From: an uncultured Bacilli bacterium
Lineage (GTDB): Bacteria; Bacillota_I; Bacilli_A; RF39; UBA660
Length of the DNA stretch: 64,000 nucleotides
Assembly: GCA_944364655.1 (NCBI GenBank)
Contig: CALVWG010000080.1
Coordinates: 2,634-66,633 of the forward strand
Reading direction: 5' to 3'
The notes beneath the pieces were generated by a model. The model made no database searches. It was given only the letters and a program-made list of their open reading frames with translations, and was not told the origin of the DNA. Below, one piece after another: positions 23,787 to 61,251 of this stretch; position 1 is the first letter of the stretch, and every line of letters starts with the position of its first letter. The translations under genes and the position numbers were made by a program.

Positions 23787-26064
23787 TTTCCTTTACTTTA
23801 GGAAAGCCCACTTTATCTGTATATGTGTTATTAGAATTACCTATTTCAACATAAACATTTTCTGAATCAAAAGTTACTCTAAAAGCTTTTGTTCCTTCAC
23901 CATAATAATTAGTAATATTTAATGTCAAACCACTATCATTTTCTTCAGTGATAGTAACTTCTTTATTGTTATAATCATATACATGAACTTTATTATTTAA
24001 AACAGCCGCATAGTATTCATCATATAATTCAATATAATTATATGAATTACTTGAAACTTCTTTGTCATAAGTATGAACAAAATACATTCCATCTTTATAA
24101 GTCTTTAAGTATTTATGAGTGCTATCGACTTCTAAATAATCAACTATGCTACTATTTTTATCAGCAGTTATTTTTTCGCCTTCAGCATCGTATAAAGCAT
24201 ATCCATTATCGCTTTCGACAACATAGTATTTACCTAATTTTTTAATGCTTTTAAAATCAAAAGATAAAACAGGTACTACTTCACTAGAATTAATACTTGC
24301 AATACCAAATTTACCACTTGATTTAGACTTGGCAATAAACATTAATTGATTAGTATTTACAAAGCTTAAACTATTCATGCTTGTATAAGAAGATGTATCA
24401 ACGCTTTCATAAGTAGCTAATTCTTTTTTATTGATTAAATCATATAGAACAATTTTATCACCATCGGATACAAAGACAAATTGTTTATTAATCAAAGGTA
24501 TTGCACCAACATTTTTGCTTTGATCTTTTTCTTTATTGTTGCCAATTGTTTCAGCAAAAAATGAATCATTTGCTAATTTACAATTATTTAAGGTAGAAGA
24601 ATTACTATCAACTTCATTATGATTAGTACAAGGATAGCTACCAATTAAAGTTTCTTTCTTTTCATCAGCGTAAAAATATAAATTTCCTTTAAAATAACTC
24701 ATAAATGCTAATTTGCTTGATAATTTTCCTTCAGATAGATTGATTGAATAGTTTTCAAAATCATCACCATTATAAATATTAATATTTAGTATATTATTAT
24801 TTAATTCATAATCATAAGCTTTTTCAGTTTTAACTAATTTATAATCTTCATAAGTTAATTTTGGATTATAATTTTGATTTTTTAAAGCTAAGCCTTCATA
24901 GCTCATTAAATTGCCTTCATAATCACTTACGAAAAGTTGATTATTAATAACATAAATTAATACATCACTTAAAAGTGTTACATAATCATAGTCTTTATTA
25001 GTTACTTGACTTGCGTTGTAATCATAAACGTTATAAGTTTTGGCAAGAACTTCTAAAACAACATGTTTATCATCAGCCGCAACGATAGGACTTGTAAATG
25101 CTTTAGTTAATATTTTATTATTTAAATCAGTCAAATAATAATTATTGTCTTTTCTAACAGAAATCAACTTTATTTCCTCTTGATTTGGTAAAATTCCTAA
25201 GGAATCATAATTATAAGGAATTACCGTTTCTAATTTATCATCACTAAATTTTTCTAAGCCATACAAACTTTCTTCATTTTTTAAAACAACATAATCAGCA
25301 TATTCATCATAACTTTTAAGATCAAAAACAGTTTTTAAAGTTTTGTTTTCAATTAAATCATACAATTTAATACTTTTATCATTCTCATCTTTATGGTCTA
25401 CAATAAAAACGAATCTTTCTTTGTAAATTTTGGCTGGAACAACTAATTTCTCGCCTTTTTCATCAACATTTATTGGTCCTAAGAAATTGTCACTGTTATT
25501 AACATCCGCCATTTTGCAAAGATTTTCATCTTTATTTTCACATTCATAAGTTCCTAATTCTTTGTCGTTTTCAAAAAAAACAAGTTTACCATTTTCATAT
25601 TTGTAATTATCCATCATTAAGATAACATCTGGTTCATTTTTTTCTAAAGTTTTATCTTTTTTTAATAAGAAAAATAAACCAACACTAATTAATATTAATA
25701 ATAAAACTATCCCACTTATAATTAAGACCTTTTTTTTCTTAGTTAAAGAATTCCATTTATCTTTTAGATTTTTAAAAAAATTCTTTTTATTTTTTTTATT
25801 AGAAGAATCATCATCTTCAACTATTATGGTTTCATCTTCTTGATTTTCTTTTTGTAATTCTTCTTTAGTATTTACAACTGTTTTGAATATTAAATCCGAA
25901 TCATTCATTTGATCATCAAATTCGTTTTGATATTCATTATATTCTTGTTCAATATTATTTAATGCTGCAATGGACAAATCTTTAAGAGTTCCAACTTCTT
26001 TAGTTGTTTCGAGCGTTTCTAGCTCATCCGTTTCATTAAACTCTTCTTTGTTCATTTTTTTCAC
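23779..26064 (-). CDS. large membrane-anchored extracellular repeat protein with acidic cytoplasmic N-terminal tail, 761 aa
   Basis: About 110 aa D/E-rich N-terminus, one TM helix (VLIISGIVLLLILISVGLFFLL), then about 600 aa with periodic (V/L)YD(Y/L)(N/I) motifs suggesting a beta-propeller or WG-like repeat fold. Confidence 0.6.
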   Translation of the reverse strand: MKKMNKEEFNETDELETLETTKEVGTLKDLSIAALNNIEQEYNEYQNEFDDQMNDSDLIFKTVVNTKEELQKENQEDETIIVEDDDSSNKKNKKNFFKNLKDKWNSLTKKKKVLIISGIVLLLILISVGLFFLLKKDKTLEKNEPDVILMMDNYKYENGKLVFFENDKELGTYECENKDENLCKMADVNNSDNFLGPINVDEKGEKLVVPAKIYKERFVFIVDHKDENDKSIKLYDLIENKTLKTVFDLKSYDEYADYVVLKNEESLYGLEKFSDDKLETVIPYNYDSLGILPNQEEIKLISVRKDNNYYLTDLNNKILTKAFTSPIVAADDKHVVLEVLAKTYNVYDYNASQVTNKDYDYVTLLSDVLIYVINNQLFVSDYEGNLMSYEGLALKNQNYNPKLTYEDYKLVKTEKAYDYELNNNILNINIYNGDDFENYSINLSEGKLSSKLAFMSYFKGNLYFYADEKKETLIGSYPCTNHNEVDSNSSTLNNCKLANDSFFAETIGNNKEKDQSKNVGAIPLINKQFVFVSDGDKIVLYDLINKKELATYESVDTSSYTSMNSLSFVNTNQLMFIAKSKSSGKFGIASINSSEVVPVLSFDFKSIKKLGKYYVVESDNGYALYDAEGEKITADKNSSIVDYLEVDSTHKYLKTYKDGMYFVHTYDKEVSSNSYNYIELYDEYYAAVLNNKVHVYDYNNKEVTITEENDSGLTLNITNYYGEGTKAFRVTFDSENVYVEIGNSNNTYTDKVGFPKVKESD

Positions 26065-31128: not shown

Positions 31129-33072
31129 TTATGGTGTTAAAACAACGCGGAAAGTGCTAGCTCCATAGGCCTGCCCTTCTGTTGGAGAAAATGCAAAGAT
31201 GCCAGCATCTGTTCCATCTGTATATGCATTGCCTCTATTAATCCAAGGTCTACTACTATATAGTAATGCTGCATTATCAAAATGCCAGCTTCCAATTGGA
31301 ATTGTTACTGCCAAATATGTTTTATTATTAAACGGACCCAGTTCGCCGGTAGCATCTCCCAGAATTCTTCGCTGATATTGTTCATCCAATGTTGAATATG
31401 TATAAGTATCATAATATTTTTTATCTGGAAAATCATAGCCCGTTGTTAATTCTATTAAACCTGATGTATCATTTTCTGATGTTGGATAGCCAAAAGTTCC
31501 ATTAAATCCAGAATTTTTCATACTATTTTTTCCACTCATGGGTTTATTGCTTTGATCTAACATAACTCCCATTACATATTCCCAATTACCTCCTGCCATA
31601 TCGTATATTCCTGTTATATTTCCTGTTGTGCTTGCTAATATGCTATCTGGATATGCTATATTACAAGAATAATCTGAGCACCATATATTACACTTTTCAT
31701 TAGTTTGTGTGTAACCACACGTTGGTTCATTATTGGCTGCATATCCTGTTAGATTGGATGAATTATTGTTTATTCTAACGCTTGTTAAACTTCCATATTT
31801 ACTGTGTTGTAAATAGGCTACTGCTCCCCATTCGGTATTCTTCATCATGTGACTATCTAAATTTCTTTTGTAATCATACGATGTATAAAAGGCGTTGGCT
31901 ACTTGAATATTTCGCCATGAGCTTACATTTGGTTTGATTTGAATGGCTTCGCTATTTCTAACGTTATAGTCTGATGTTAATGTTGTTCCCGTTTCAAACT
32001 TACCTACCCAAAATCCTGTACTTGGTATACTTAAAAATGCTGGATGAGTCATGTAATCTCCTACTTGACAGTTTCCTGTCGCACCACTTTCCATTGGTGT
32101 TGTACATTCTCCATCTATTGAATCACTTGTATTATAATCACCAAAGATAATTGGTATTTCATGAACTTTACTTTCATCTATTTCGGTTAAATCTTGATAC
32201 TCACCTAAGTCCCATAATTGATATCGATATTTTGGTATCCACACAAAGTATGATTCTATTGCATCTTCTGGTATTGTTGAGCCTACACTGTAATTAGTTA
32301 TTGAACTTTCATCTTTTAAAATAATTGCATTTGCCCATTCTTTGTTTTCATAGTTATACCATTCTTTTTCTAGATCAGCTCTTTTTACTGTGCCATCATT
32401 GTCGATTGTTACAGCTATTAATGTATCTTTTAATACTGGGTCTGCTCCATTTAATAACGTTTCTTTATAATTATTTGTTTTTGTTGCTGTTGATATAACA
32501 TTTATGCTTCCTTCAAATTTTGTGTTCATGGCTTCATTTCCTGTTGCCTCATCCATCCATAAATAAAAATTGTATGTTTCACTTTCATTTTGTTTTAATT
32601 TTCCACTTGCTATTATTATTGATTCATCTAAATTAGTTATTTGTAATTCTTCTGTTGCGGTATTAAAATTACTTACTGTTCCTAAATTTGTTCCTGTTGC
32701 TGGTTTACTTTCTGTACTTTTATATATGGCATATTTTAACCATTTTTTTTGCATTGTATTTGTTGTTAATGTATTTAATGTTACATTATATGCTGCATCA
32801 TTTGTACATGTATTAGTAATTTTAAATGTATATGGTGTTGCTGATAATCCTTTTTGATCACTTACAGGATAAGTATTATGTAATTCTACTGAAGAAGAAA
32901 GTTCTTCAAATTCAACACTAAAGCATCCCACTTCAACGATATTTTCTCCTCCTGTATAACTTGCTACCCATAAAGCATAACTTTGATAGGCCATTAAGCA
33001 TATTCCTATTCCAACTGTTATTATTGCTAACAATATTTTATATTTTAATTTCATCTTTCTCACCTCATACAT
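31129..33072 (-). CDS. secreted/membrane-anchored protein, paralog 1 of a three-member family with C-terminal FGE/SUMF1-like (C-type-lectin-like fold) domain
   Basis: N-terminal signal/anchor MKLKYKILLAIITVGIGICLMAY and a variable about 200 aa beta-rich module. The about 400 aa conserved block has PNVSSWRNIQVANAF, MMKNTEWGAVAY, ITGIYDMAGGNWEYVMG and RGNAYT, which parallel the FGE-sulfatase family motifs (..SW.dA.a.., ..eaEWeyAar, GlyDMsGNvWEW, RGGSW). Cys-rich. Confidence 0.7.
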   Translation of the reverse strand: MYEVRKMKLKYKILLAIITVGIGICLMAYQSYALWVASYTGGENIVEVGCFSVEFEELSSSVELHNTYPVSDQKGLSATPYTFKITNTCTNDAAYNVTLNTLTTNTMQKKWLKYAIYKSTESKPATGTNLGTVSNFNTATEELQITNLDESIIIASGKLKQNESETYNFYLWMDEATGNEAMNTKFEGSINVISTATKTNNYKETLLNGADPVLKDTLIAVTIDNDGTVKRADLEKEWYNYENKEWANAIILKDESSITNYSVGSTIPEDAIESYFVWIPKYRYQLWDLGEYQDLTEIDESKVHEIPIIFGDYNTSDSIDGECTTPMESGATGNCQVGDYMTHPAFLSIPSTGFWVGKFETGTTLTSDYNVRNSEAIQIKPNVSSWRNIQVANAFYTSYDYKRNLDSHMMKNTEWGAVAYLQHSKYGSLTSVRINNNSSNLTGYAANNEPTCGYTQTNEKCNIWCSDYSCNIAYPDSILASTTGNITGIYDMAGGNWEYVMGVMLDQSNKPMSGKNSMKNSGFNGTFGYPTSENDTSGLIELTTGYDFPDKKYYDTYTYSTLDEQYQRRILGDATGELGPFNNKTYLAVTIPIGSWHFDNAALLYSSRPWINRGNAYTDGTDAGIFAFSPTEGQAYGASTFRVVLTP

Positions 33073-33074
33073 TT

Positions 33075-33776
33075 TTATTTTTTTGATTGAAATAAAGTTA
33101 TAGCAACTAAAATAAATACTACTACTATTAAACCAATTATAATATAATTAATACTTTGGGGATTATTAACCGCGTCATTAACAACGGCCGCGGTCAAAAA
33201 ATAATCAGAACAATGATCAATTTGAAATTCGACATAACCATTTTTAACTTGAACGCCATGATCGATATATTCAATTTGATCTAATTCTGGATTATAATAA
33301 TATAAATACAGCTTTTCGCCATCTTTAAACTTATTTTCAACATTCAGTTTAACTGTTGTTTCTAAAGGTAATGCGCCATGATAATCAAAAGTTATAATTA
33401 ATTTGTCTTGTATAACTTCTTCATTTATTTTGGCAGTATCCTTAGTTGTTGCGTCTATTGAAAGCCTTAAATCCTCTTCAATAAACAAACTGTCTTCAAC
33501 AGAAATATCTTGATTTTTGTCTTTTAAAAATTTCCATGAATATTTTAAATCTCTTTCATAATCTTCAATTTCATAAAAATAATAATCTTCTGTTTCAGTT
33601 TTTGTCATTTTTGTTTTTTTGCTTTCCATAGCAATAATTTTATCGTCTAATTCATCTATTGTAACAATTTTTTCGCTTTTTGGGAGAAATATTTTGCCAA
33701 TGCTTATACCACAAAAAACAATTATAAAAACAATGCTACAAAATATTATAATATCTTTTATGTATTGTTTTTTCAT
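33075..33776 (-). CDS. bitopic membrane protein (N- and C-terminal TM helices, extracellular middle), 233 aa
   Basis: Hydrophobic helices at both termini. Stop 3 nt before the paralog 1 start. Confidence 0.45.
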   Translation of the reverse strand: MKKQYIKDIIIFCSIVFIIVFCGISIGKIFLPKSEKIVTIDELDDKIIAMESKKTKMTKTETEDYYFYEIEDYERDLKYSWKFLKDKNQDISVEDSLFIEEDLRLSIDATTKDTAKINEEVIQDKLIITFDYHGALPLETTVKLNVENKFKDGEKLYLYYYNPELDQIEYIDHGVQVKNGYVEFQIDHCSDYFLTAAVVNDAVNNPQSINYIIIGLIVVVFILVAITLFQSKK

Positions 33777-34780: not shown

Positions 34781-35062
34781 TTACGCTTTTACTTCGTAAA
34801 CACTTACTTTCTTTTTATCTCTTCCTAATCTCTCAAAACGAACAACACCAGTTATTTTTGCAAATAAAGTGTGATCTTTACCCATTCCAACATTTGTTCC
34901 TGGATAAATTTTTGTTCCTCTTTGACGATATAAAATGCTTCCAGCTGAAACAGTTTCGCCATCAGCAGCTTTAGCACCTAATCTACGTCCAGCAGAATCT
35001 CTACCATTATCAGTAGAACCCTGAGCTTTAACGTGAGCGAATAATTGAAGATTTAAAAGCAT
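34781..35062 (-). CDS. rpmA: 50S ribosomal protein L27 with Firmicutes-type N-terminal propeptide
   Basis: MLLNLQLFA|[14 protein letters not shown]... is the Prp cleavage motif and L27 core. Start moved to the internal Met of the ORF-track model. Confidence 0.9.
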
Positions 35063-35063
35063 T

Positions 35064-35384
35064 CTATTCATTTTTCTCATCCTCTCTAATCGTTATATTT
35101 TCCGGATAATTTTCTTTAAGTTCATAAAAAAGTTCAATCATATTATTTAAAAGATTTTTAGTAATTAAGTCATTTTTTAAAATTTTTAATTCTACTTCAT
35201 CTTTTTTTTGATTTACATTTAAGGCATTTTTATCAAATTTTAAAATACCATTAACAGAAGTTATCAAAATACTTGATACTCCAGCACATACAATGTCTTT
35301 ACCATAATCATCATACATTGCATGTCCTTTTAAAGTAATAGTAATAAAATTATCCTTTTTCTTTTTAATATCAATACGTATCAT
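35064..35384 (-). CDS. prp: ribosomal-processing cysteine protease Prp (YsxB family)
   Basis: 106 aa between rplU and rpmA. GHA and DIVCAGVS catalytic His/Cys context. Confidence 0.85.
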
Positions 35385-35683
35385 TAACCAACAATACTCT
35401 TAATCGTAACTTTTGTATAAGGTTGCCTATGTCCTTGTTTTTTACGATATTTTTTCTTTGGACGATATTTAAATACAATAATCTTTTTTTGTTTACCATG
35501 TTTTTCAACAGTACCAACTACTTTAGCACCTTTAACAGTTGGATTTCCAGATTTACCATTTACATATAAAACTTCAGTAAATTCTACATCACTACCAACT
35601 TCATTTGGCAATTTTTCAACATAGATTGTGTCGCCTTCAGAAACATAATATTGTTTTCCACCAGTTACAAATATAGCTTTCAT
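35384..35683 (-). CDS. rplU: 50S ribosomal protein L21
   Basis: [25 protein letters not shown]...[23 protein letters not shown] matches L21. Confidence 0.95.
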
Positions 35684-35790
35684 TTCTTACCTCCTTTATA
35701 ATTTAAGACGCGCCATTAAGGTACGAATATTCGTTTATAACCTTTTTTGTGCGGTTTTGATAAAAGCTAATTGCTTTACAAAACAAATAA
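35684..35790 (-). promoter_or_regulatory. 5' leader of rplU operon with perfect 12-bp palindrome (possible L21-leader autoregulatory structure)
   Basis: About 100-nt UTR between the mapped promoter and the rplU ATG containing ACGAATATTCGT. Ribosomal-protein leader RNAs are known upstream of rplU in Bacilli. Confidence 0.4.
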
Positions 35791-35819
35791 ATTTTACCAA
35801 AAAAGGCCTTTATTGTCAA
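35791..35819 (-). promoter_or_regulatory. sigma-A promoter of rplU-prp-rpmA
   Basis: Minus strand TTGACA (35814-35819), 17 nt, TGgTAAAAT extended -10 (35791-35798). Confidence 0.65.
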
Positions 35820-35870
35820 TTATTTTGAAAATTATATCAAGAAAATTATTTTGAAAATTATCTCAAGAAA
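35819..35870. repeat. 26-bp tandem direct repeat x2 (25/26 identical) immediately upstream of rplU -35
   Basis: attattttgaaaattatatcaagaaa / attattttgaaaattatctcaagaaa. Each unit on the minus strand contains cTTGATATAAT (an extended -10-like element). Confidence 0.8.
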
Positions 35871-35907
35871 AAGGTAAAAAATTAATTAAAATAATAAATA
35901 TAATGGC

Positions 35908-37497
35908 TTAAGGGGTTAAAACGGTGCGAAAACCCATAATTAAATCTGCGTGGCCTCTTACAAAGTAAAAACTAAAAATACCTGCTACTGTGCCACTTGT
36001 AAATAAGCTTCCTCTTACAAACCATGGTACTGATAAATTTATAAATGTTGAATTATCAGCATACCAGCTTCCTACTTGTGCAATTTGATTATAATATTCT
36101 GCGGTATTAAATGGCCCCATTTCGCCTGTTGCATCGCCTAATATTCTTCTTGAAAAATCCGTACTGTTTTGACTATAGCTATATACATCATAATACTTTT
36201 TATCTGGCCAATTATAGCCACTAGTTAATTCTGTTAGACCTGATGTATCACTATCACAGTTTGGGCAGCCAAATGTTCCATTAAATCCAGAATTATCTAC
36301 ATTATGTCTTCCACTCAATAAATTTCCATTTCTATCAACAGTTACTCCCATGACATATTCCCATGATCCGCCTGACATATCATAGATTCCTGTTATATTA
36401 TTTGTTGTACTTGCTAATACACTATTTGGATATGCTATATTGCAACTATCATCATTACATTGTTTATTACATTCTTCATTAGTATTTGTCCAACCACATG
36501 TTGGTTCGTTATTGGCTTGATAACCTGTTATATATGATGAATTATTGTTTATTCGAACACTTGTTGCTGAACCATATACACTATGTTGTAAGTAAGCTAC
36601 TGCTCCCCACTCGGTATTCTTCATCATGTGACTATCTAAATTTCTTTTGTAATCATACGATGTATAAAATGCATTAGCTACTTGTATGCCTCGCCATGAA
36701 CTTACATTTGGCTTGATTTGAATTGCTTCGCCATTTCTGACATTGTAATTTGCTGTTAATGTTGTTCCTGTTTCAAATTTGCCGACCCAAAATCCTGTAC
36801 TTGGTATACTTAAGAATGCTGGATGTGTCATGTAGTCACCTATTTTACAATTGCCTGTTGCGCCACTTTCCATGGGTGTTGTACATTCATTTTCTTTATT
36901 ATCACTTGTATTGTAATTGCCAAAGATAATTGGTATTTCATGAACTTTACTCGTATCTATTGTTGTTAAACTATTATATTGACCCAAATCCCATAATTGA
37001 TATCGATATTTTGGGATCCATACAAAATAACTTTCAATTTTATCTTCTGGTATCACTTCGCCAGCTAAATAATCTTCTGTTTCATCTTTTAATATTATGG
37101 CATTGGCCCAATTCTTTTTTTCGTAGTTATACCACTCACTTCCAATGTCGGCTTTTTTGACTGTCCCATCACTATCTATTGTTACTGGTATTAGTTCATC
37201 TTTAATTATTGGATCTGTTCCGTTTAATATTGCTTCACTGTATCCTTTTTTAAAATATAAGGTACATTTTGTTAAACTTGTAGTTACATTTTTGACTATT
37301 GGACTCCACGACTCATAGTCCCATATTATATAAGCACCATTTGTACAACTGCTTTTTGTTTCATCAAAAATATTTTCTCCTTTTGTTGGAATAGTTTTTG
37401 TTTTTTCATTATTTACATATATTGCTAATTTTATATTTTCAAGATTATCTAATTGTTTCTGAGTTTCTTTTTTATTCAATATACCCCCCCAGAACAA
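35908..37497 (-). CDS. paralog 2 of FGE/SUMF1-like-domain family; main ORF lacks signal peptide because of +1 frame offset at G7 tract (phase-variable gene or frameshifted pseudogene)
   Basis: The 529-aa ORF begins at TTG with no signal. The conserved C-terminal about 420 aa is 85-95% nt identical to paralogs 1 and 3. See the upstream signal-peptide fragment. Confidence 0.65.
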   Translation of the reverse strand: MFWGGILNKKETQKQLDNLENIKLAIYVNNEKTKTIPTKGENIFDETKSSCTNGAYIIWDYESWSPIVKNVTTSLTKCTLYFKKGYSEAILNGTDPIIKDELIPVTIDSDGTVKKADIGSEWYNYEKKNWANAIILKDETEDYLAGEVIPEDKIESYFVWIPKYRYQLWDLGQYNSLTTIDTSKVHEIPIIFGNYNTSDNKENECTTPMESGATGNCKIGDYMTHPAFLSIPSTGFWVGKFETGTTLTANYNVRNGEAIQIKPNVSSWRGIQVANAFYTSYDYKRNLDSHMMKNTEWGAVAYLQHSVYGSATSVRINNNSSYITGYQANNEPTCGWTNTNEECNKQCNDDSCNIAYPNSVLASTTNNITGIYDMSGGSWEYVMGVTVDRNGNLLSGRHNVDNSGFNGTFGCPNCDSDTSGLTELTSGYNWPDKKYYDVYSYSQNSTDFSRRILGDATGEMGPFNTAEYYNQIAQVGSWYADNSTFINLSVPWFVRGSLFTSGTVAGIFSFYFVRGHADLIMGFRTVLTP

Positions 37498-37540
37498 CTA
37501 GACTGGTTAGGAGGATTAAAAATGTTATTCTTTTTTTCAT
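37472..37540 (-). CDS. out-of-frame signal-peptide fragment of paralog 2 (MKKRITFLILLTSLVVLGGYIE*)
   Basis: ATG 13 nt downstream of AGGA. Classic n-region plus hydrophobic core. Terminates 8 codons after the G7 tract; removing one G joins it to the 529-aa ORF. Confidence 0.6.
   Translation of the reverse strand: MKKRITFLILLTSLVVLGGYIE
37484..37490. repeat. G7 (C7 on + strand) homopolymeric tract at the signal-peptide/mature-domain junction of paralog 2
   Basis: Only G/C homopolymer longer than 5 noticed in this AT-rich window. A G6 or G9 tract would fuse the upstream signal-peptide ORF in frame. Confidence 0.8.
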
Positions 37541-37595
37541 CACTTTTATTCCTACTTTCTACATATTTTAAATATATCATTTTTGAAAATCTTTT

Positions 37596-38384
37596 TCAAT
37601 ATTTTAGAGAAGAGAATATTGACTTTGATAACATTTCTTTTTCAGATAAATAATGATTGTTTTGATAAAAAAAGTGTCTAGTTTCTTTTTTTAAAGAAGA
37701 AATATTGTTATCAAAATTGTTTTCGATTTTTTTATAGGGAAAAGAATATAACATTCTTTCTAAATAAAAGCGATTAAGTAAATATTTTTTGTTTTTTAAA
37801 ACGATTAAAAATTGAATTAATAAAACTATACATATAAAATAATTATCAATTGGATAAAATATGTTGTAAATTAAAAAAAGAATAAAAAAGCTAAATGATA
37901 TTAGTTGATAAAAGAAAAATGCTTTTTGATAAGAAAAAAATTTTTCTAAAAATGTATGCATTATTATACTGCCATCTAAAGGAATTATTGGTAATAAATT
38001 GAAAAGAAGAATTATATTGTTATAAGTATTGATTAAGATATAGTCATTTGGTTTAAAATAAATTAAAATTATAGCTAATATAAATTGGATAGTAACTCCT
38101 GAAATAGCAATTATAAACTCTTTATTAATAGAAGAATTTATTGGCTTATCTATTTTAGTTATTCCTCCAAAAGGAAATAGCTCTACTTGAATCACTTTAT
38201 ATTTAAAAAATTTAATAGCTAGGACATGACCTAGTTCATGTAAAAAAACAATTAAAAATATATATATTACATTTTTAAAATAACCGCATAAAAAAGCTAA
38301 AAGAAAAAAGCAATAAGTAGTAATATTTATTTTAAATTTCTTTTTGATATTCTTCATAAGTAATAAACTCGCCATCTTTAACAA
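37596..38384 (-). CDS. spoIVFB: M50 site-2-protease family intramembrane metalloprotease, SpoIVFB-like
   Basis: HELGH (HExxH) in a TM helix and LPIIPLDGS (LDG motif) downstream. Sits in the conserved position before rplU. Confidence 0.6.
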   Translation of the reverse strand: MLKMASLLLMKNIKKKFKINITTYCFFLLAFLCGYFKNVIYIFLIVFLHELGHVLAIKFFKYKVIQVELFPFGGITKIDKPINSSINKEFIIAISGVTIQFILAIILIYFKPNDYILINTYNNIILLFNLLPIIPLDGSIIMHTFLEKFFSYQKAFFFYQLISFSFFILFLIYNIFYPIDNYFICIVLLIQFLIVLKNKKYLLNRFYLERMLYSFPYKKIENNFDNNISSLKKETRHFFYQNNHYLSEKEMLSKSIFSSLKY

Positions 38385-38955
38385 AGGCTAAATAATAGTA
38401 GTTATCAGTGGTATTACCTATAACTGTTCCACTTTCGATATAATCATATAATTTTAAGTTGGTGTTATTAATATTACCATACCAAATATCGATTCCGTTA
38501 ACACCTTGAACGATGTAGACATTGCCATAGCCTTCTTTTTCACCTTGAAAAACAAATAAACCGCTTTCTAAAACTGATATAGCACTATCTTTTGTGGTAC
38601 TAATTTTATAGCCGTCTAAATATTTTTCTTTGTTTAAAATTAAATCGTTATTGGAAACTAATTGCTCAGTTGGTTCAGTAACACTGGGTAAAATATTTCC
38701 AAATGAATTATGGTACCATTCATTAATTTTGGTAAAGGTTAAATTGCTTTGCAAAACTGTATTTTTAAAGTTAGCTAAATTATCTGGACTTAATTTAATA
38801 TAAATTGTACAACCTAAAACTAAAATGACACTTAGTAATACTTTAGTAAATATTTTGCTGATTTTTTTATCGTCTTTTTTTGTTTCTGAAAATTCATTTT
38901 CTCTTCTTTTTTTATGTCTTAATGCGATCATTTCTAGTTCATCCATATTATTCAC
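38332..38955 (-). CDS. spoIVFA: degenerate LytM/M23-domain membrane protein, SpoIVFA-like
   Basis: N-terminal TM. C-terminal GYGNVYIVQ...IDIWYGNI...LAFVKDG aligns to the M23 GYGN.V.I.H / ..Y.HL / HLHFE motifs with the catalytic His replaced, as in SpoIVFA/SpoIIQ. Upstream of the M50 gene as in Bacillus. Confidence 0.55.
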   Translation of the reverse strand: MNNMDELEMIALRHKKRRENEFSETKKDDKKISKIFTKVLLSVILVLGCTIYIKLSPDNLANFKNTVLQSNLTFTKINEWYHNSFGNILPSVTEPTEQLVSNNDLILNKEKYLDGYKISTTKDSAISVLESGLFVFQGEKEGYGNVYIVQGVNGIDIWYGNINNTNLKLYDYIESGTVIGNTTDNYYYLAFVKDGEFITYEEYQKEI

Positions 38956-54106: not shown

Positions 54107-54132
54107 AAAAAAATCTTTCAAAGAAAGATTTT
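54107..54132 (-). terminator. rho-independent terminator ending the Tad-locus transcript
   Basis: AATCTTTC-aaa-GAAAGATT perfect 8-bp stem with A7 on the + strand (T7 on the minus strand) between the pilin gene and ruvA. Confidence 0.55.
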
Positions 54133-54745
54133 AAACTAATCCAATATAGTAAAATTCTAAATCATCAATATCATTTTCATCGCTTCCGGTAATTGCTGGT
54201 ACAATAACTCTAATGGATTTATAATTTGAACATGATCGAAAAGAATTATTTAATGTTCCTTTTTCTGATTCATCTAATATTCCATTATTATTGGTATCGC
54301 AATTATAATTACAAATGCCGTCACCATTACTATCAATATTTAATTCATATGAGCAATTATCTGCGCTAGATTTTGAAATCTTAATATTTTCAAAATCATA
54401 ATAAGCCTCATCATTACCATTTGTTTCAATCGGCCAAGTCTCATTACCATAAGTAATACTATCTTTATTAACCACCATTGTTGAAACAAAATTTTCAAAT
54501 ATAAAATTTATTGAACTTGTGTTTGCATTGGTAGAAATTGATACATCATTTAATTTGTTATTTAATAAGTCTTCTTGAACCGTTTTTATAATAGTAGCTC
54601 GATTTACTTGATTTTCTTTTAAATATGAAGCATGTTTATTTTCGTATTCTATGTCAATTAATAGACTGAAAAGAAAAAGCATTACTATAGCAATTAAACC
54701 AACACTGATAATAACTTCAACTAATGTCATACCTTTTTTATTCAT
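54131..54745 (-). CDS. type IV prepilin-like protein (class III signal G|MTLVE) with Asp/Asn-rich Ca-binding-like loops
   Basis: MNKKGMTLVEVIISVGLIAIVMLFLF is a canonical type IVa-type prepilin N-terminus. DSNGDGICNYNCDTNNNGILDESE resembles DxDxDG Ca-binding motifs. Four Cys. Confidence 0.7.
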   Translation of the reverse strand: MNKKGMTLVEVIISVGLIAIVMLFLFSLLIDIEYENKHASYLKENQVNRATIIKTVQEDLLNNKLNDVSISTNANTSSINFIFENFVSTMVVNKDSITYGNETWPIETNGNDEAYYDFENIKISKSSADNCSYELNIDSNGDGICNYNCDTNNNGILDESEKGTLNNSFRSCSNYKSIRVIVPAITGSDENDIDDLEFYYIGLV

Positions 54746-54779
54746 ATTAAATCATTCCTTATATTTTTATTTATAAACA

Positions 54780-56660
54780 TTATGGCGTTAGAATTAGGCG
54801 AAAACTTACCCACATGTCCATAGTTCCATAAGAGTTACCAACTCCAAATAATCCAGCACCTAAGCCACTAGTATAAGCAGCACCTCGTAAAATAAACGGA
54901 AAATTTGTCCAAATAAAATAACTTTCATCACTATACCAGCTACTTATACTTCTATTTTGAGACAGAAATTGAACTAAATCAAACGGGCCAATCTCACCAA
55001 CGGCATCACCTAATATTCGTCTTGAAAAATCGTTTTGATTAATAGAAAAATTATAAATATCATAATATTTTTTATTCAGAAAATCATAATCAGCTATTAT
55101 TTGGTCATTTTCATCTAGCATAACTCCCATTACATATTCCCATGCACCACCACTCATATCATATATGCCTGTAATATTTCCAGTTGTACTGGCTAATACA
55201 CTATTGGGATAAGCTGTATTACAACTATTATCATTACAATAGCGATTACATTCTTCGTTTGTTCCTGTATATCCACATGTTGGTTCATTGTTCGCGGCAT
55301 ATCCGGTTATATAATCCGAATTATTATTTATTCTAACACTTGTGGCACTTCCATAGGCACTATGTTGTAAATATGCTACTGCTCCCCACTCGGTATTCTT
55401 CATCATATGACTATCTAAATTTCTTTTATAATCATATGATGTGTAAAAGGCATTAGCTACTTGTATACTTCGCCATGAACTTACATTTGGTTTGATTTGA
55501 ATAGCATCTCCATTTCTGACATTGTAATCTGAAGTTAATGTTGTACCTGTTTCAAATTTGCCGACCCAAAATCCGGTACTTGGGATACTTAGGAAAGCTG
55601 GATGGGTCATGTAGTCTCCTATTTGACAGGAGCCTGTTGCTCCACTTTCCATTGGTGTTGTACATTCATTTGCATTGGCATCATTTGTGTTGTAATCGCC
55701 AAAGATTATGGGTATTTCATGAACTTTACTTTCATCTATTTCAGTTAAATCTTCATATTGTCCTAAATCCCATAATTGATAACGGTACTTTGGTATCCAA
55801 ACAAAGTATGATTCAATTGCTTCTTCTGGTATTACTGAATCTACTTCATAATTGCTTGCTGTACTTTCATCTTTTAAAATAATTGCATTTGCCCATTCTT
55901 TATTGGCATAACTGTACCATGGTTTGGTTGTGTCGGCTTTTTTTACTGTTCCATCACTTTCTATTGTGACGGCTATTAATTCATCTTTGATTATTGGATC
56001 TGCTCCATTTAATATTGTCTCTTGATATTTATTTGTATTAATACTTTGACTTTCATGAACTAGTCCTGTTCCTTCTATTTTATATGATACTACTTTATTG
56101 GTATCTTCTTCTGTTACTACACTTTCATCTATTATAATACTTATACTATATACCTCTGTACTGTTTACTTCCATTTCTGCTTCACTTATAAGTGTTCCAT
56201 CTGTTAATTCACTTAATGTTTTTCCATTTTCATAACGACTTACTATTTCTAATGTTTCGCCTACTTGATGTCTTAACACTACTTTTACTTTTGTATTTTC
56301 TAATGTGTTTTCTTCATTGGCTATTAACTTTATTGTGTAACTTCCTTTTAAACTTCCTGTATTTCTAACACTTAATTTATAATCACATTCTCCTAAATAT
56401 AAACTATTTTCTTCTACTGTCATGGGTGTAAAACAAACACTTTTTTCTGTACTTGTTATCGTCCCAGATGAATTTTCATATGTAAAAACTAAGTCTCCTG
56501 CTTCTACAACTTGATTTTTACTATTTCCATCTATTTTAAAAAACATTGCATATGATAAACTTAAGACTACTATTGTTAAACATATTATTATATAACTTGC
56601 TAGCTTTGTTTCTCTTTTAAAAATATTTTTAAAACTTAAGTTATTTTGCATATATTTCAC
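54780..56660 (-). CDS. paralog 3 of FGE/SUMF1-like-domain family, N-terminal signal-anchor plus variable beta-rich module; appended to Tad pilus operon
   Basis: 626 aa. KLASYIIICLTIVVLSLSYAMF anchor. Conserved C-terminal block near-identical to paralogs 1 and 2 (same SWR/EWGAVAY/GIYDMSGGAWEYVMG motifs). Confidence 0.7.
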   Translation of the reverse strand: MKYMQNNLSFKNIFKRETKLASYIIICLTIVVLSLSYAMFFKIDGNSKNQVVEAGDLVFTYENSSGTITSTEKSVCFTPMTVEENSLYLGECDYKLSVRNTGSLKGSYTIKLIANEENTLENTKVKVVLRHQVGETLEIVSRYENGKTLSELTDGTLISEAEMEVNSTEVYSISIIIDESVVTEEDTNKVVSYKIEGTGLVHESQSINTNKYQETILNGADPIIKDELIAVTIESDGTVKKADTTKPWYSYANKEWANAIILKDESTASNYEVDSVIPEEAIESYFVWIPKYRYQLWDLGQYEDLTEIDESKVHEIPIIFGDYNTNDANANECTTPMESGATGSCQIGDYMTHPAFLSIPSTGFWVGKFETGTTLTSDYNVRNGDAIQIKPNVSSWRSIQVANAFYTSYDYKRNLDSHMMKNTEWGAVAYLQHSAYGSATSVRINNNSDYITGYAANNEPTCGYTGTNEECNRYCNDNSCNTAYPNSVLASTTGNITGIYDMSGGAWEYVMGVMLDENDQIIADYDFLNKKYYDIYNFSINQNDFSRRILGDAVGEIGPFDLVQFLSQNRSISSWYSDESYFIWTNFPFILRGAAYTSGLGAGLFGVGNSYGTMDMWVSFRLILTP

Positions 56661-56705
56661 CCTTTTCTTTTTTTATTATAACAAAAATCCCTTTTTCTTT
56701 AAAGT

Positions 56706-57407
56706 TTAGCCTATAAAAAAGTCTATTACAACTGGGGCTAGAATAACTATCAAAATTATTGGAATAAAAAATATGACTGATAAAATACTGATTTTTGTTG
56801 GTAATTTACCAATTTGACTTTTTATTTCTAATAGTCTTTTATCTCTTAAAAAATCTAATTGATTATTTAAAGATTCTTCAATATTATTACCAAATACACT
56901 TGATTGAACAATATTTAATAAAGCATTATTAATCGTGTCGCTTGGAATTCTTTGCTTCATATCAGTAATAGCTTCTGGAAAACTTTTGCCTAAACTCATT
57001 TCTTGTAATGATTTTTGAAATTCTTCGGAAAGCTCTGATTGAATATTTTTAGAAGTAATACGTAAAGATAAAGTTAGATTACGACCGCTTTCTAAAGTCA
57101 AAGACAAAACTTCAAAAAAGAATATAGCTTCTTCTTCTAATTTTTTTTCTCTTTTTTTTATTGGATAATCTAAAACGATATATTCACTTAAATAATGAAA
57201 AATTACGACAGCAATTGGGGCAATAATATAGCCGTTTTTATTAAAAGCTAAAAATAAGAAAAAGATAGCTAAACTAATTAATAAACGATAATTCAATAAA
57301 TCAATTGCTTTATAATGACAATGCAATCCTAGTAATTTTATTTTTTTATCAATTCTTTTAATTGATTTTTCTGAATAAATTTTTCTGACTAAACTTTTTT
57401 CATTCAT
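56706..57407 (-). CDS. tadC: Tad pilus assembly inner-membrane protein TadC (T2SS-F-like)
   Basis: 233 aa, polytopic. Follows tadB with a stop/start overlap. Confidence 0.6.
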   Translation of the reverse strand: MNEKSLVRKIYSEKSIKRIDKKIKLLGLHCHYKAIDLLNYRLLISLAIFFLFLAFNKNGYIIAPIAVVIFHYLSEYIVLDYPIKKREKKLEEEAIFFFEVLSLTLESGRNLTLSLRITSKNIQSELSEEFQKSLQEMSLGKSFPEAITDMKQRIPSDTINNALLNIVQSSVFGNNIEESLNNQLDFLRDKRLLEIKSQIGKLPTKISILSVIFFIPIILIVILAPVVIDFFIG

Positions 57408-58414
57408 TAAATCTTCACCTTTAATACTTTCTTAATAACCATAATATATAATGTATATAATAAAATTACTAAAACTAAAATCATTTTGCCAAGCGTTGTT
57501 GTAAATATTGGGGCAAAATAACTTGGATTTAATATATATATTGCCAAAATAAATAATAATGGTAAAAAACATAAAGTTCTAAATACAAAAATTGAAGCAC
57601 TTGTTAAGCTTTGCATTTCTTGTTTTAGTTTCTTTTTATCAAAAAATGATCTTTCAATAGTACCAAAAACTTTAACTATATTTCCGCCTGTTTTATTTAA
57701 AAGGGTTAAAGAACTTGTAATGTATTTAGCGTCATCTAATTTAACTCGGTTATAAAAACGATCAAAAACAACTTCAATACTTAAACCGTATGTCATATCT
57801 AAATAAATTTTTTTAAATTCATCGCTAATTGGGCCTTCTAGTTCTTCTTTAACAATTTGGACAGCTTGCATTATATTTCTTCCAGATTTAAAGCTGTTAT
57901 TCATAATTATAATTGCTTTTAATAAATCTTCTTCAACTTTCTTTCTTTTCTTTTGATATTCGATATTAATAAATATATCCGGAATAAAAAAGCCTATTAA
58001 AAAAGATATTAAAAAACTCATTAAAGTCATTTCCATTACTTGGAACATAAATGTTAAAATATTAAACAGAATAAATGAGAAGCCAACAATAAATTTTATA
58101 GAAATGTAATCCATGCCACTTATACTATCTTTATCTTCATATTTAATGTGTTTTTCATATTTTAAACCATACTTTTTTAAAAAAACACTTTTACTTAATA
58201 AAGAAGATAATTTATGAACAAATTTCCATAAATAATCAGTAATTGTTTCAAAGAAAGATTTTTCTTTATCATGGATACTTATCAAAGCAAAATCTTCAAA
58301 TCTTTTTTCAAGTTTAATTATTCTTTTTTGTCTGATTAAGTAAATAATAAGCACGATAAGAATTAGGATTACAATACTTTGGGTTATTAAAATTTGCCAA
58401 GAATAATTTTCCAT
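57407..58414 (-). CDS. tadB: Tad pilus assembly inner-membrane protein TadB (T2SS-F-like)
   Basis: 335 aa with N- and C-terminal TM clusters and a cytoplasmic GspF-like domain. Follows tadA. Confidence 0.65.
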   Translation of the reverse strand: MENYSWQILITQSIVILILIVLIIYLIRQKRIIKLEKRFEDFALISIHDKEKSFFETITDYLWKFVHKLSSLLSKSVFLKKYGLKYEKHIKYEDKDSISGMDYISIKFIVGFSFILFNILTFMFQVMEMTLMSFLISFLIGFFIPDIFINIEYQKKRKKVEEDLLKAIIIMNNSFKSGRNIMQAVQIVKEELEGPISDEFKKIYLDMTYGLSIEVVFDRFYNRVKLDDAKYITSSLTLLNKTGGNIVKVFGTIERSFFDKKKLKQEMQSLTSASIFVFRTLCFLPLLFILAIYILNPSYFAPIFTTTLGKMILVLVILLYTLYIMVIKKVLKVKI

Positions 58415-58430
58415 GTTTATCTTCCTTTCT

Positions 58431-59774
58431 TTAATTTTTTTTGTTAAACATAAAGTCGATATCGGTTATACCTTTAGTTGCAATTTTATTATATACTTTT
58501 GGAACTTTATCGTTGTACAAAAAGTATTCACCATCAACTTCACCATTTTTGGTTAAACCATTTTGCTTAAAAGCAAAAATTTCTCTTAATTCTAATTCTC
58601 CCTCATGAAAGTTTTCTAATTCGGCAATAGACGTTATTTTTCTTTTGCCATCACTCATTCTATCAATATTAACTACAAGATCAATAGCACTAGCAATGTA
58701 TTCACGAATGGCTTTAATTGGAATATCCATTCCACTCATTAAAACCATTGTTTCTAGTCGATTCAAAGCATCTTTTGGTCCGTTTGCATGAAGTGTTGTT
58801 AAAGATCCTTCGTGACCGGTATTCATAGCTTGTAACATATCAAAAGCTTCTTTGCCACGAACTTCACCAACGATAATGCGATCTGGACGCATACGAAGAG
58901 CATTTATTACTAAATCTCTAATGGTAATTTCCCCTTCATTATCATAATTGGTAACTCTAGTTTCTAGTGATATTACGTGTTCTTTTTCTAATTTTAATTC
59001 GGCAGCATCCTCTATAGTAATAATTCTTTCATTATCTGGAATAAAACTGCTCAAAATATTTAAAAGAGTTGTTTTACCAGAACCAGTACCACCGCAAACA
59101 ATAATGTTACATTTTCCTTTTACTGCTGCTTCCAAAAACGTTGCCATATATGGGGTCATTGAACCAATTCTAATCATATCGTCAGCACTAGTCATTTCAC
59201 TTCTAAATTTTCTGATTGTTATAACTGGTCCTTTTGTTGATAAAGGAGGAATAACAGCGTTTATTCTTGAACCATCTTTTAACCTGGAATCGACCATAGG
59301 ATTAGTTGCGTCAATTGTTCTTCCCATTGGTCCAATCATTCTTTCAATTGTTCTGATGATATGTTCATCGTTAATAAATGATACACTTTCATCTTTAATG
59401 ATTTGGCCATCTATTTCAATATAAATTTCTTTGGGACTATTAACCATTATTTCAGTAATGTTTTTATCTTCCAATAATTCTGTTAAAGGACCATAGCCAT
59501 TAATTTCATTATCAATTAAATTATATAAATGACTTCTTTCCAAATTAGATAAATCATAACCTTCTATTGTTTTATCGATTTCGTCATTAATAAATTGATT
59601 TAATAATTTATCTTCAGGAATTTCTTTATCAATTAAATTTTCAACTATTTTAGTTCTTAATTCATCTAAAAGTTTTTTATCAGGAAAGATTTCATAATCA
59701 GAAACATAATGAACTTTATTAGGTTTTCTTTCAATATTAAACGCTTCAACTAAGCTCTTCTTCATGTTCGTCAT
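58431..59774 (-). CDS. tadA: Tad/Flp pilus assembly ATPase CpaF/TadA (VirB11-like secretion ATPase)
   Basis: Walker [17 protein letters not shown], Asp box, Walker B and His box of type II/IV secretion NTPases. 447 aa. Confidence 0.9.
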
Positions 59775-60534
59775 CTTCCTTTCCTAAAATATCTGTGGCA
59801 ATTTTCATCATGACTGTGTAATCTTTATTAAAAATTGAGGCTGCTTTATTTTGAAGGGTTATTATCTCACCATTCATAACATAATTATCAATATTTTTAA
59901 TGTAAAATTCTTCGGATATGATGTAATCTACATTAGCTTTTAATATGTTTTTTATATCAAAAAGACTAAAATATTTTTTCATTGGTTCACGAGAATTATT
60001 TAATATTATATTATAATTGTTTTTGTTTAAATCTCTAAAAATCGAAAGTAAACTTTTCATGTTTTTAAGATCTAACGGATCATTTGTCATGATAAATAAA
60101 ATATTTTTTACTTCATCTAAGATAACTAGATTTGTTTCATTTAAATTATGATTAGTATCTATTAAAACAACATCATAAAAATATTCGGCTTTATCAATTG
60201 CTATTTCAATGTATTTTGAATCTATTTTTGATGCTTGTCGAGGATCTTTAGGACTAGCTAATACGTCAATGTTTTCACTATATTTAGTTATGTAATCATT
60301 AAAATTATGAAAGCGATTGTTATTATAATCATCAACTAAATTATAAATCGTTTTATCAAAGGGTTTATTAATCGCTAAAGAAATTCCGCCACTGGATAAA
60401 TCTAAATCCATTATGAGTACTTTTTTACCAATACTTTGATAAATGCCAGCAAGATTTAAGGTAAATATTGTTTTACCAACACCACCTTTACCAGAAAATA
60501 TACATATGCTTTTTCCTGTTTTCTTTTTCATCAC
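59746..60534 (-). CDS. tadZ: CpaE/TadZ-like ParA/MinD-family ATPase (no receiver domain)
   Basis: Deviant Walker A FSGKGGVGKTIFTLNLA. 262 aa. Confidence 0.7.
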   Translation of the reverse strand: MMKKKTGKSICIFSGKGGVGKTIFTLNLAGIYQSIGKKVLIMDLDLSSGGISLAINKPFDKTIYNLVDDYNNNRFHNFNDYITKYSENIDVLASPKDPRQASKIDSKYIEIAIDKAEYFYDVVLIDTNHNLNETNLVILDEVKNILFIMTNDPLDLKNMKSLLSIFRDLNKNNYNIILNNSREPMKKYFSLFDIKNILKANVDYIISEEFYIKNIDNYVMNGEIITLQNKAASIFNKDYTVMMKIATDILGKEDDEHEEELS

Positions 60535-60914
60535 TAAGTCTCCTTTTTTTCTATTATGATATTGCCATCTTTTATTTTTCCAATTCGGTTTACATTTATT
60601 TCATAATCATTAATATTGATTAGTTTGCCAAATATGGAATCTATTTTAGATTTAACTAAAACTGTTACTGTATCATCTTCAACTACAATTTCATAGTTTT
60701 CTTTAGGGATCATATTATATGAAAGAGTTTTTTCTAATGAATCAGTACCATTATTCAAAAAAAACTCTTTTATACTTTCATCGACAATTCCTTTGTATTT
60801 TTGATAACTATGCTCAATAATTCCTACATCAACTATTATGGCAGTTAAAATCAAAAAAACAGGAATTAAAATGATAAACATAATTAAAGTTTGACCTTTA
60901 TTATTCATAACCAA
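60534..60914 (-). CDS. TadE/TadF-like pseudopilin
   Basis: MVMNNKGQTLIMFIILIPVFLILTAIIVDVG is a TadE-family N-terminus (processing site after G, hydrophobic helix). Confidence 0.6.
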   Translation of the reverse strand: MVMNNKGQTLIMFIILIPVFLILTAIIVDVGIIEHSYQKYKGIVDESIKEFFLNNGTDSLEKTLSYNMIPKENYEIVVEDDTVTVLVKSKIDSIFGKLININDYEINVNRIGKIKDGNIIIEKKET

Positions 60915-61251
60915 TCACTCTTTTTACTTCAACTGGATAAGGATTTTCAAATATGATATTTAACCCTGGCGTAATTATTTCGATGTTTTTTGTTAAATAA
61001 AAGGTTACTTTTTCATTATCATCATTTTGAATCTCTAACTCTACATCTTTATCATTTATTTTGACGTCATTTAAAATATCGTTATATGTTTTTTTATTTC
61101 GATATAAATCAATAACGTCACTAAGTTCATTTTCTAATTCATTTCTTATATAAATAATTTTACCAATATCAATAATTGCCAGCACCATAAATACAAAAAT
61201 TGGCAAAATTATTACAAATTCGACTAATGCTTGACCCCTTTTTTTATTCAT
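60901..61251 (-). CDS. tadE: TadE-like pseudopilin
   Basis: MNKKRGQALVEFVIILPIFVFMVLAIIDIG matches the TadE motif G.ALVEF..L.P. Confidence 0.65.
   Translation of the reverse strand: MNKKRGQALVEFVIILPIFVFMVLAIIDIGKIIYIRNELENELSDVIDLYRNKKTYNDILNDVKINDKDVELEIQNDDNEKVTFYLTKNIEIITPGLNIIFENPYPVEVKRVIGYE

Follow-up and report, generated by a model that had tools for sequence, protein, structure and literature searches.

Although homopolymer phase variation is a textbook property of a few pathogens of mucosal surfaces, uncultured commensals of the gut are seldom considered in this respect. In Neisseria, a poly-G tract within the signal-peptide sequence of pilC leads to phase-variable expression (PMC13017665). 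The low-GC bacteria Campylobacter jejuni and Helicobacter carry rare G/C homopolymers, both intragenic and intergenic, that mark phase-variable surface-structure genes (PMC8355987). Here we analyzed a 64,000-nucleotide (nt) stretch of DNA (hereafter the window; contig CALVWG010000080.1 of assembly GCA_944364655.1, positions 2,634 to 66,633) from an uncultured Bacilli bacterium of the RF39 lineage, in which a run of seven G (G7) lies between a signal-anchor leader and a 529-codon body that is in another reading frame. This gene is likely a phase-variable contingency locus, with a poly-G tract at the junction of signal anchor and body that would change length by slipped-strand mispairing, and with the allele in the window switched OFF.

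The closest analogue of the window gene is Neisseria pilC. The pilC1 and pilC2 genes of Neisseria gonorrhoeae and N. meningitidis likewise have poly-G in the signal-peptide coding region, encode an exported pilus-associated protein, and occur with more than one paralog per genome. In contrast, PilC/PilY1 is a beta-propeller protein with no sequence relation to the window protein, and it belongs to a Gram-negative pathogen instead of an uncultured low-GC gut member of the Bacilli. Furthermore, switching of pilC was shown experimentally, whereas switching of the window gene is predicted. With Campylobacter jejuni and Helicobacter, the window shares the rare G/C homopolymer in a low-GC genome. 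It differs from Campylobacter in encoding MutS, and Campylobacter switches mostly target glycan-modification genes, whereas a single large paralogous protein family is concerned here. To our knowledge, Campylobacter lacks MutS/MutL-type mismatch repair.

The start of the gene was read directly from the sequence: on the minus strand, an AGGA at 37553-37550 is followed by a 9-nt spacer and an ATG at 37540-37538. The elements of the locus, in positions of the window, are the following.

37550..37553, minus strand: Shine-Dalgarno sequence AGGA, read directly and present in all close alleles of the alignment
37472..37540, minus strand: leader open reading frame (ORF) for the truncated product of the putative OFF state, consisting of the signal anchor MKKRITFLILLTSLVVLGG, YIE, and a stop
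37484..37490, minus strand: poly-G tract, the proposed switch element, with exactly 7 G in the coding-strand sequence (C7 in that of the plus strand)
35908..37497, minus strand: body ORF of 529 codons that begins at a TTG, is shifted to the +1 frame with respect to the leader, and is open throughout
37571..37599, minus strand: promoter-like site TTGAAA-17 nt-TATATT with a TG before the -10 hexamer (10/12 matches)

The leader ORF has 22 codons and reads MKKRITFLILLTSLVVLGGYIE up to its stop at 37474-37472. An earlier note on this DNA had described a signal-peptide ORF running from the ATG at 37540 into the G7 tract and a 529-amino-acid (aa) body in the +1 frame from a TTG, all of which the direct reading confirmed; the leader, however, stops three codons past the tract (Y-I-E-stop) and not eight, as given there. 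The body ORF (35908..37497) has no Shine-Dalgarno sequence of its own at its TTG start. Deletion of one G yields the precursor MKKRITFLILLTSLVVLGGILNKKETQKQ..., which is the N-terminus of the intact orthologs P0003 and P0006, and P0003, P0006, and contig L083 all have the same leader continuing in frame into the body. The mature protein would start at approximately 37483 (ILNKKETQ...). The promoter-like site at 37571..37599 lies partly within the M50 peptidase gene upstream, at its 3' end. Its position fits, but AT-rich DNA has many matches of this kind (17 seen vs. 13.9 expected in the scanned region).

Tract lengths of 6 and 9, which are multiples of three, are read as two or three glycines and join leader and body in one frame, whereas lengths of 7, 8, 10, and 11 stop the reading frame after approximately 22 residues; the G7 of the window is out of frame. 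An in-frame length would correspond to the ON state with an exported or anchored protein, and an out-of-frame length to the OFF state; the body has neither a ribosome-binding site nor an export signal of its own. Replication slippage would add or remove G's and lineages would flip between the two states, with expression of the product predicted to depend on tract length. The product may be one of several paralogs in a large surface- or pilus-associated family, and stochastic switching in combination with a recombining hypervariable C-terminus could vary what is displayed to host immunity, phages, or ligands.

Comparison with relatives carries most of the evidence for such a switch. A protein search with the repaired precursor returned more than 7000 homologs, nearly all of them metagenomic. 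The exact window protein is absent from the public collection, and exact look-ups of the NCBI-only homologs P0002, P0003, and P0005 likewise gave no entry. In-frame leaders are present in P0003 and P0006 (..VVLGGILSKKE) and in P0002 (..LGGGISSKKE), and many homolog gene calls begin right after the tract (MNKKETQ...) or within it (MFWGG...). From these internal starts, the same frameshift was therefore suspected elsewhere, and the DNA of relatives confirmed it. We compared the site with 13 other contigs that carry it, all comparison sequences being metagenome assemblies. Where the flanks are identical to the window in the alignment, the tract is G6 and in frame in L083, G8 in L090, and G10 in L081 (93% aa identity to the window gene), L082, L084, L088, and L089. 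The more distant orthologs in L085 (G7), L004 (G10), L092 (G10), and L049 (G11) are out of frame, and those in L086 (interrupted G6TG4) and L064 (G9) are in frame. Thus, all three reading phases are found, with 11 alleles out of frame (window included) and three in frame by DNA, plus two in frame by protein (P0002 and P0003, whose tract state derives from the protein alone). Approximately two thirds of the alleles are OFF, which is about the 2:1 ratio expected of unbiased phase. The Shine-Dalgarno sequence and leader are identical or nearly so in all close alleles, and the upstream ATG ORF, whose absence or lack of conservation the earlier note had named as speaking against a switch, is identical or nearly so in all alleles.

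The comparison of the same locus in related strains that had been proposed is provided by L082, a 64-kb contig (sample ERZ1643251) that is collinear with positions 40374-31871 of the window at 94-97% nt identity. Both share the gene order M23 peptidase, M50 peptidase, switch gene, L21, Prp, L27, Rce1-like, 233-aa gene, and paralog, and their L21 and M50 peptidase proteins are 100% and 96% identical, respectively. At the locus where the window has G7, this near-conspecific has G10. The phase variation suggested in the earlier note is thus supported by a tract that varies between identical flanks and by the occurrence of in-frame as well as out-of-frame alleles; that 6 or 9 G join leader and body was borne out by L083 (G6) and L064 (G9), both in frame, and by the intact P0003 and P0006. 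The locus combines three attributes of repeat-contingency genes, namely a mutable tract in the 5' coding region, polymorphic tract length with conserved flanks, and intact OFF alleles.

Further evidence comes from the sequence of the body. The leader and the 518-713-codon body are open in every OFF allele for which the whole gene lies on the contig (the contig of L088 reaches only 191 codons into the body). For the window (G7) compared with L081 (G10), the nonsynonymous divergence (dN) is 0.043 and the synonymous divergence (dS) 0.31 (dN/dS 0.14), and the dN/dS ratios between the window and other alleles are 0.24-0.25. Across this considerable divergence, the body has evolved under purifying selection, although both of the alleles sampled are in the OFF state. 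Such a low dN/dS between two OFF alleles is therefore not that of an old pseudogene and fits a gene that is ON part of the time.

The tract itself is the sole G/C run of at least six in the 64-kb window, which has a GC content of 27.4%. Simple composition models predict 0.17-0.38 G/C runs of at least seven per window, but the same models over-predict G/C runs of at least five approximately fourfold (~11 expected vs. 3 observed). With GGG making up 3.9% of the glycine codons (35/899) and no second G/C run of at least six in the window, the homopolymer is maintained against codon bias. The earlier note had called G7 a strong outlier; it does stand alone at this length, but on its own it is a moderate outlier, and the weight rests on the comparative data.

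Among the alternatives, a homopolymer miscount in the assembly, with a true tract of G6 or G9 and an intact gene, is unlikely; in that case only the OFF state would be miscalled, and the site could still be a switch. Several sequencing platforms are known to be prone to errors in homopolymer length, and one base fewer gives a perfect precursor. However, the window contains 170 A/T runs of at least seven and yet no other examined gene looks disrupted, which argues against a general homopolymer problem in the assembly; its ORFs are tightly packed, and every Pfam-matched gene has the expected domains. In addition, out-of-frame lengths at the site, among them another G7 (L085), recur in independent assemblies produced by different studies. 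Poly-G artefacts of two-colour sequencing would be long, located at contig ends, and random with respect to strand, in disagreement with the count of 29 to 0 in favor of the sense strand around family genes of other genomes (see below). We rejected an Illumina two-colour artefact as the source of the relatives' tracts, which are internal, short, flanked by conserved sequence on both sides, strand-specific, and recurrent across studies.

It is quite unlikely that the frameshift marks an ordinary and irreversible pseudogene, a redundant paralog that has died and does not switch. Two intact paralogs in the same window and the shortness of G7 are compatible with this explanation, and the family does accumulate pseudogenes, as illustrated by genes in L042, L071, and L075 that are split without a G run of at least six at the junction. 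Nevertheless, the body (529 codons), leader, Shine-Dalgarno sequence, and promoter-like site of the window gene are all intact, and its dN/dS is 0.14 over a dS of 0.31 when compared to an out-of-frame allele that differs by 3 nt in the tract. The sole lesion coincides exactly with the tract whose length differs among relatives, and in-frame alleles with the same flanks exist.

Recoding, in which a +1 ribosomal slip (peptidyl-tRNA-Gly moving from GGG to the next GGG during a pause at the rare GGG codon) or RNA polymerase stutter would make the frameshift set the expression level instead of silencing the gene, is very improbable: tRNA-Gly could re-pair perfectly one base downstream, GGG is rare (3.9%), and the commonest lengths, G7 and G10, need the same +1 shift, but three phases occur (G8 and G11 requiring the opposite shift, G6 and G9 none), tract length is not conserved, the orthologs do not keep the one phase and one sequence expected of a programmed frameshift site, and the length variation is not explained, although recoding could add leaky expression. 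A stimulatory element was not noticed, but no search aimed at one was made.

Several points also weigh against a phase-variable locus, the reading that we prefer. Reversible, high-frequency switching is something we infer from differences between assemblies, and homopolymer lengths in metagenome assemblies could be off by one. G10 is over-represented (7/16 alleles), an excess that may stem from the equilibrium of mutation, from selection for the OFF state, or from a bias of assembly. G7 is at the short end of the tracts usually held to be hypermutable in Campylobacter and Neisseria, and the tracts of relatives, mostly G9-G13, are longer. Finally, the window encodes a full-length MutS with all five domains (2731-5274), and mismatch repair may damp slippage.

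Variability is not confined to the tract. The conservation of the gene is highest at its 5' end, where the first 200-300 nt (ribosome-binding site, leader, tract flanks, and approximately 40 mature codons) are 96-100% identical in L081, L082, L084, and L083, and even paralogs with other bodies (L089, L090) have an almost identical ribosome-binding site, leader, and first ~15 mature codons. This near-identity (window 37385-37585 vs. L081-L084 and L088-L090) persists despite a synonymous divergence of 0.3-1.0 in the body. It suggests a shared 5' cassette that is subject to gene conversion or to constraint at the nucleotide level. The opposite end of the gene is as follows.

35838..36341, minus strand: hypervariable 3' segment comprising the last ~145 codons and 70 nt of intergenic sequence, with no detectable nt similarity to L082

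This segment is a gap in an alignment of the window and L082 that is otherwise 94-97% identical, leaving approximately 450 nt of the gene unalignable, with unrelated sequence in their place in L082. Across alleles, the 3' end of the gene falls to 41-65% nt identity, and beyond codon 400 (the last ~120 codons) the aa identity is 42-60% with a dN/dS of 0.35-0.58 for alleles other than L081, which is the exception with a 3' end 97-98% identical to that of the window. Together, the pattern suggests a homogenised 5' cassette combined with a recombining, diversifying C-terminus.

The window protein consists of an N-terminal signal anchor, a small beta-rich N-domain (predicted local distance difference test score, pLDDT, ~75), and a conserved C-terminal module of approximately 440 aa with many invariant Cys, Trp, and Tyr residues. 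In an exhaustive search clustered to 50%-identity representatives, the C-terminal module had 3457 matches at E<=0.001 and 2396 at <=1e-10. Other members fuse the module to prepilin/pilin (PF07963) or Laminin_G_3 (PF13385) domains, and giant members with 11-15 tandem C-terminal modules are also found (P0247, 3713 aa; P0349, 4516 aa). Two family paralogs and a Tad-like type IV pilus cluster are encoded in the window.

31129..33072, minus strand: family paralog of 647 aa that lacks a poly-G tract and whose C-terminal module is 71% identical
54780..56660, minus strand: family paralog of 626 aa without a tract, inside the Tad-like cluster between the T2SSF genes and the prepilin gene
54131..61251, minus strand: Tad-like type IV pilus cluster, complete-looking, between an HD-domain gene and ruvA/ruvB
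60901-61251 and 60534-60914, minus strand: two TadE-like genes of the cluster
59746-60534, minus strand: ParA/TadZ-like gene of the cluster
58431-59774, minus strand: T2SSE ATPase gene of the cluster
57407-58414 and 56706-57407, minus strand: two T2SSF genes of the cluster
54131-54745, minus strand: prepilin gene of the cluster (product starting MNKKG/MTLVEVII)

The paralogs share only the C-terminal ~440-aa module with the window gene, at 71-73% identity. The statement that the architecture of the joined precursor matches that of the two paralogs thus holds for this module, but their N-terminal anchors and N-domains differ from those of the window gene and are longer. For the family, a role as a pilus-associated or surface adhesin is the best inference, because some members are fused to pilins and one paralog lies inside the Tad-like cluster, and the window product is considered a putative surface protein from its signal anchor and the pilus context. 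The leader of the window gene (MKKRITFLILLTSLVVLGG) has no Pfam match to N_methyl, the class III prepilin leader, whereas those of L073, P0121, and other relatives do. These relatives resemble the Streptococcus sanguinis proteins PilB and PilC, which are modular type IV pilins whose functional module is presented by the pilus (PMC8179133), in that they combine a class III prepilin leader, a pilin module, and the family C-terminal module. The window gene, in contrast, has an ordinary signal anchor, and the module grafted onto its pilin-like relatives is of neither the vWA nor the ConA-like type. Phase variation is not part of the description of PilB and PilC as modular pilins (PMC8179133).

The window protein had been designated "FGE-like", after the formylglycine-generating enzyme (FGE). 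Searches of the window protein against Pfam and NCBIfam returned no match, and one paralog reached only E=0.044 in Pfam. PF03781 (FGE-sulfatase/SUMF1-like) is found below threshold in 16 of 112 members, with a best E of 0.005 and none at the curated gathering score. The profile matches in PDB are weak (5vf4, E 0.075; PvdO 5hha, E 0.61), the best match of a single-protein search has an E of 1.1, and further searches returned nothing relevant; PvdO itself adopts an FGE fold. Conserved motifs are found in the order expected of FGE (HMMKNTEWGAVAYL ... ITGIYDMSGGxWEYVMG), but the family has many conserved cysteines and a long insert that are atypical of FGE. AlphaFold2 models reached a mean pLDDT of 40 with a 38-sequence alignment of the body and of 59 with a 103-sequence alignment of the C-terminal module, in which the core (157-298) was unresolved. 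Both structure models are poor, and no fold match was obtained with them. The label is therefore weakly supported.

Poly-G tracts are a recurrent feature of the family. A scan of one genome per species returned at least 576 family matches, with many copies per genome and tandem arrays. The matches are from uncultured gut metagenome-assembled genomes (MAGs) that carry the labels Bacilli, Tenericutes, or Ca. Ventrenecus and whose hosts include chicken, rabbit, mouse, and human. In 571 kb around family genes fetched from other genomes, we found 29 G runs of at least eight, all on the sense strand of the family gene, and no C run of at least eight. A family gene directly follows 25 of these 29 runs, and three of the other four lie at the end of a locus. 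The tracts fall into three classes. The first are promoter-spacer tracts of the form TTGACAT-G(10-13)-TATCATGATAAAAT or TTGAC(T/A)TA-G(9-10)-TA(A/T)T(A/G)TTATATAAT, followed by a strong inverted repeat. The second are signal-anchor tracts as in the window gene, and the third are leader tracts in modular type IV pilin members, such as L073 with G11 (MNNINTNKYSSWGGGHFTKVKG/FTLIELLAVIIIL).

Spacer tracts of G9-G13 between a perfect TTGACA-type -35 and a -10-like box are present in L002 (3820-3880), L003, L015, L016, L019, L025, L029, L038, and L074, and a second group of promoter-spacer tracts is found in L048 (three copies), L054, L065, L075, L079, and L080. They look like promoter-spacer switches, with a predicted effect on transcription; if TGATAAAAT is taken as the -10 box, the spacers measure 19-22 nt, above the optimum of 17 +/- 1. 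The inverted repeat after the spacer tract overlaps or abuts the -10 box, has RNA fold z-scores of -4 to -6, and could be an operator or a 5' stem-loop. Homopolymer switches in promoter spacers are known from the poly-C of Neisseria opc, the poly-G of porA, and the poly-A of Mycoplasma hyorhinis vlp. The G9-G13 promoter-spacer tracts of the relatives, located upstream of family genes in tandem arrays, resemble vlp-type families, whereas the tract of the window gene itself is in the coding region.

Modular-pilin members with a leader tract include L073 3386-5347 (on the circular 1.31-Mb MAG OZ006981.1), L058, L033, and proteins P0121-P0168. In this clade, ON proteins have 1-4 leader glycines, and in approximately 10 of 48 database gene calls the product is cut back to an internal Met; these are probably OFF alleles. 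Family genes that are split without a G run of at least six at the junction were also observed (L038 3976-6025, L042 2662-4314, L071 3925-5432, and L075 1856-3645), one of which (L038) has a G11 promoter-type tract ~120 nt upstream of the first ORF. These split genes could represent real pseudogenes, errors of assembly, or switches of another type.

With a dozen or more family copies per genome, often in tandem arrays, it is about evenly balanced whether these uncultured small-genome gut Bacilli possess a lineage-wide "phasome", in which the pilus-associated or anchored family would act as a combinatorial variation system with interchangeable poly-G placement (in promoter spacers, signal-anchor codons, or prepilin leaders), a shared 5' cassette, and recombining C-termini. 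If so, it would be the commensal-Firmicute counterpart of the surface-variation systems of Neisseria and Mycoplasma, of which we found no description in the literature searched. The mechanism is classical, but the lineage, the protein family, and the interchangeable tract placement appear undescribed in that literature; it yielded nothing specific on phase variation by poly-G tracts for RF39, for uncultured Bacilli of the gut, or for MAGs, although the idea may already have been published elsewhere. Gene callers report such OFF genes as N-terminally truncated proteins, and many database entries of the family start at internal codons because OFF alleles are called as truncated. Confirmation of the switch would provide a handle on surface or pilus-tip variation of small-genome gut Bacilli under immune, phage, or ligand pressure, and it would flag a large unannotated protein family as probable adhesins. 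The ON/OFF states could then be read from metagenomic reads as a population-level phenotype.

The switch gene sits between an M23 peptidase/M50 site-2 protease pair, which we take to resemble the spoIVFA/spoIVFB arrangement, and the rplU-prp-rpmA operon (window 34781-38955). Directly downstream of it, a strong promoter (TTGACA-17-TAAAAT) is located at 35819-35791, two ~24-nt direct repeats (..gataattttcaaaataatt..) lie at ~35815-35870, and an L21 leader (RF00559, 39.6 bits) follows at 35696-35766. Apart from the G7, repeats that might act as switches in the window are limited to five A/T runs of 9-10 and short (AT)4-5 repeats, none of them suggestive. Two further ORF pairs were considered as frameshifts and rejected. 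The pair 43263-43646/43612-44277 is normal: its longer ORF encodes MreC, the overlap arises artificially from choosing the longest ORF, and the shorter ORF has no Pfam match and occupies the place expected of MreD. The members of the pair 16298-16897/16848-17468 have no shared family. Directly after mutS, there is no MutL-like gene; the next ORFs encode a 195-aa protein without a family match and NusB. Window ORFs without a Pfam match include 23779-26064 (761 aa), 22821-23786 (321 aa), 33075-33776 (233 aa), and 547-1461 (304 aa). The 233-aa ORF directly precedes the paralog at 31129-33072, and this pairing is kept in L082.

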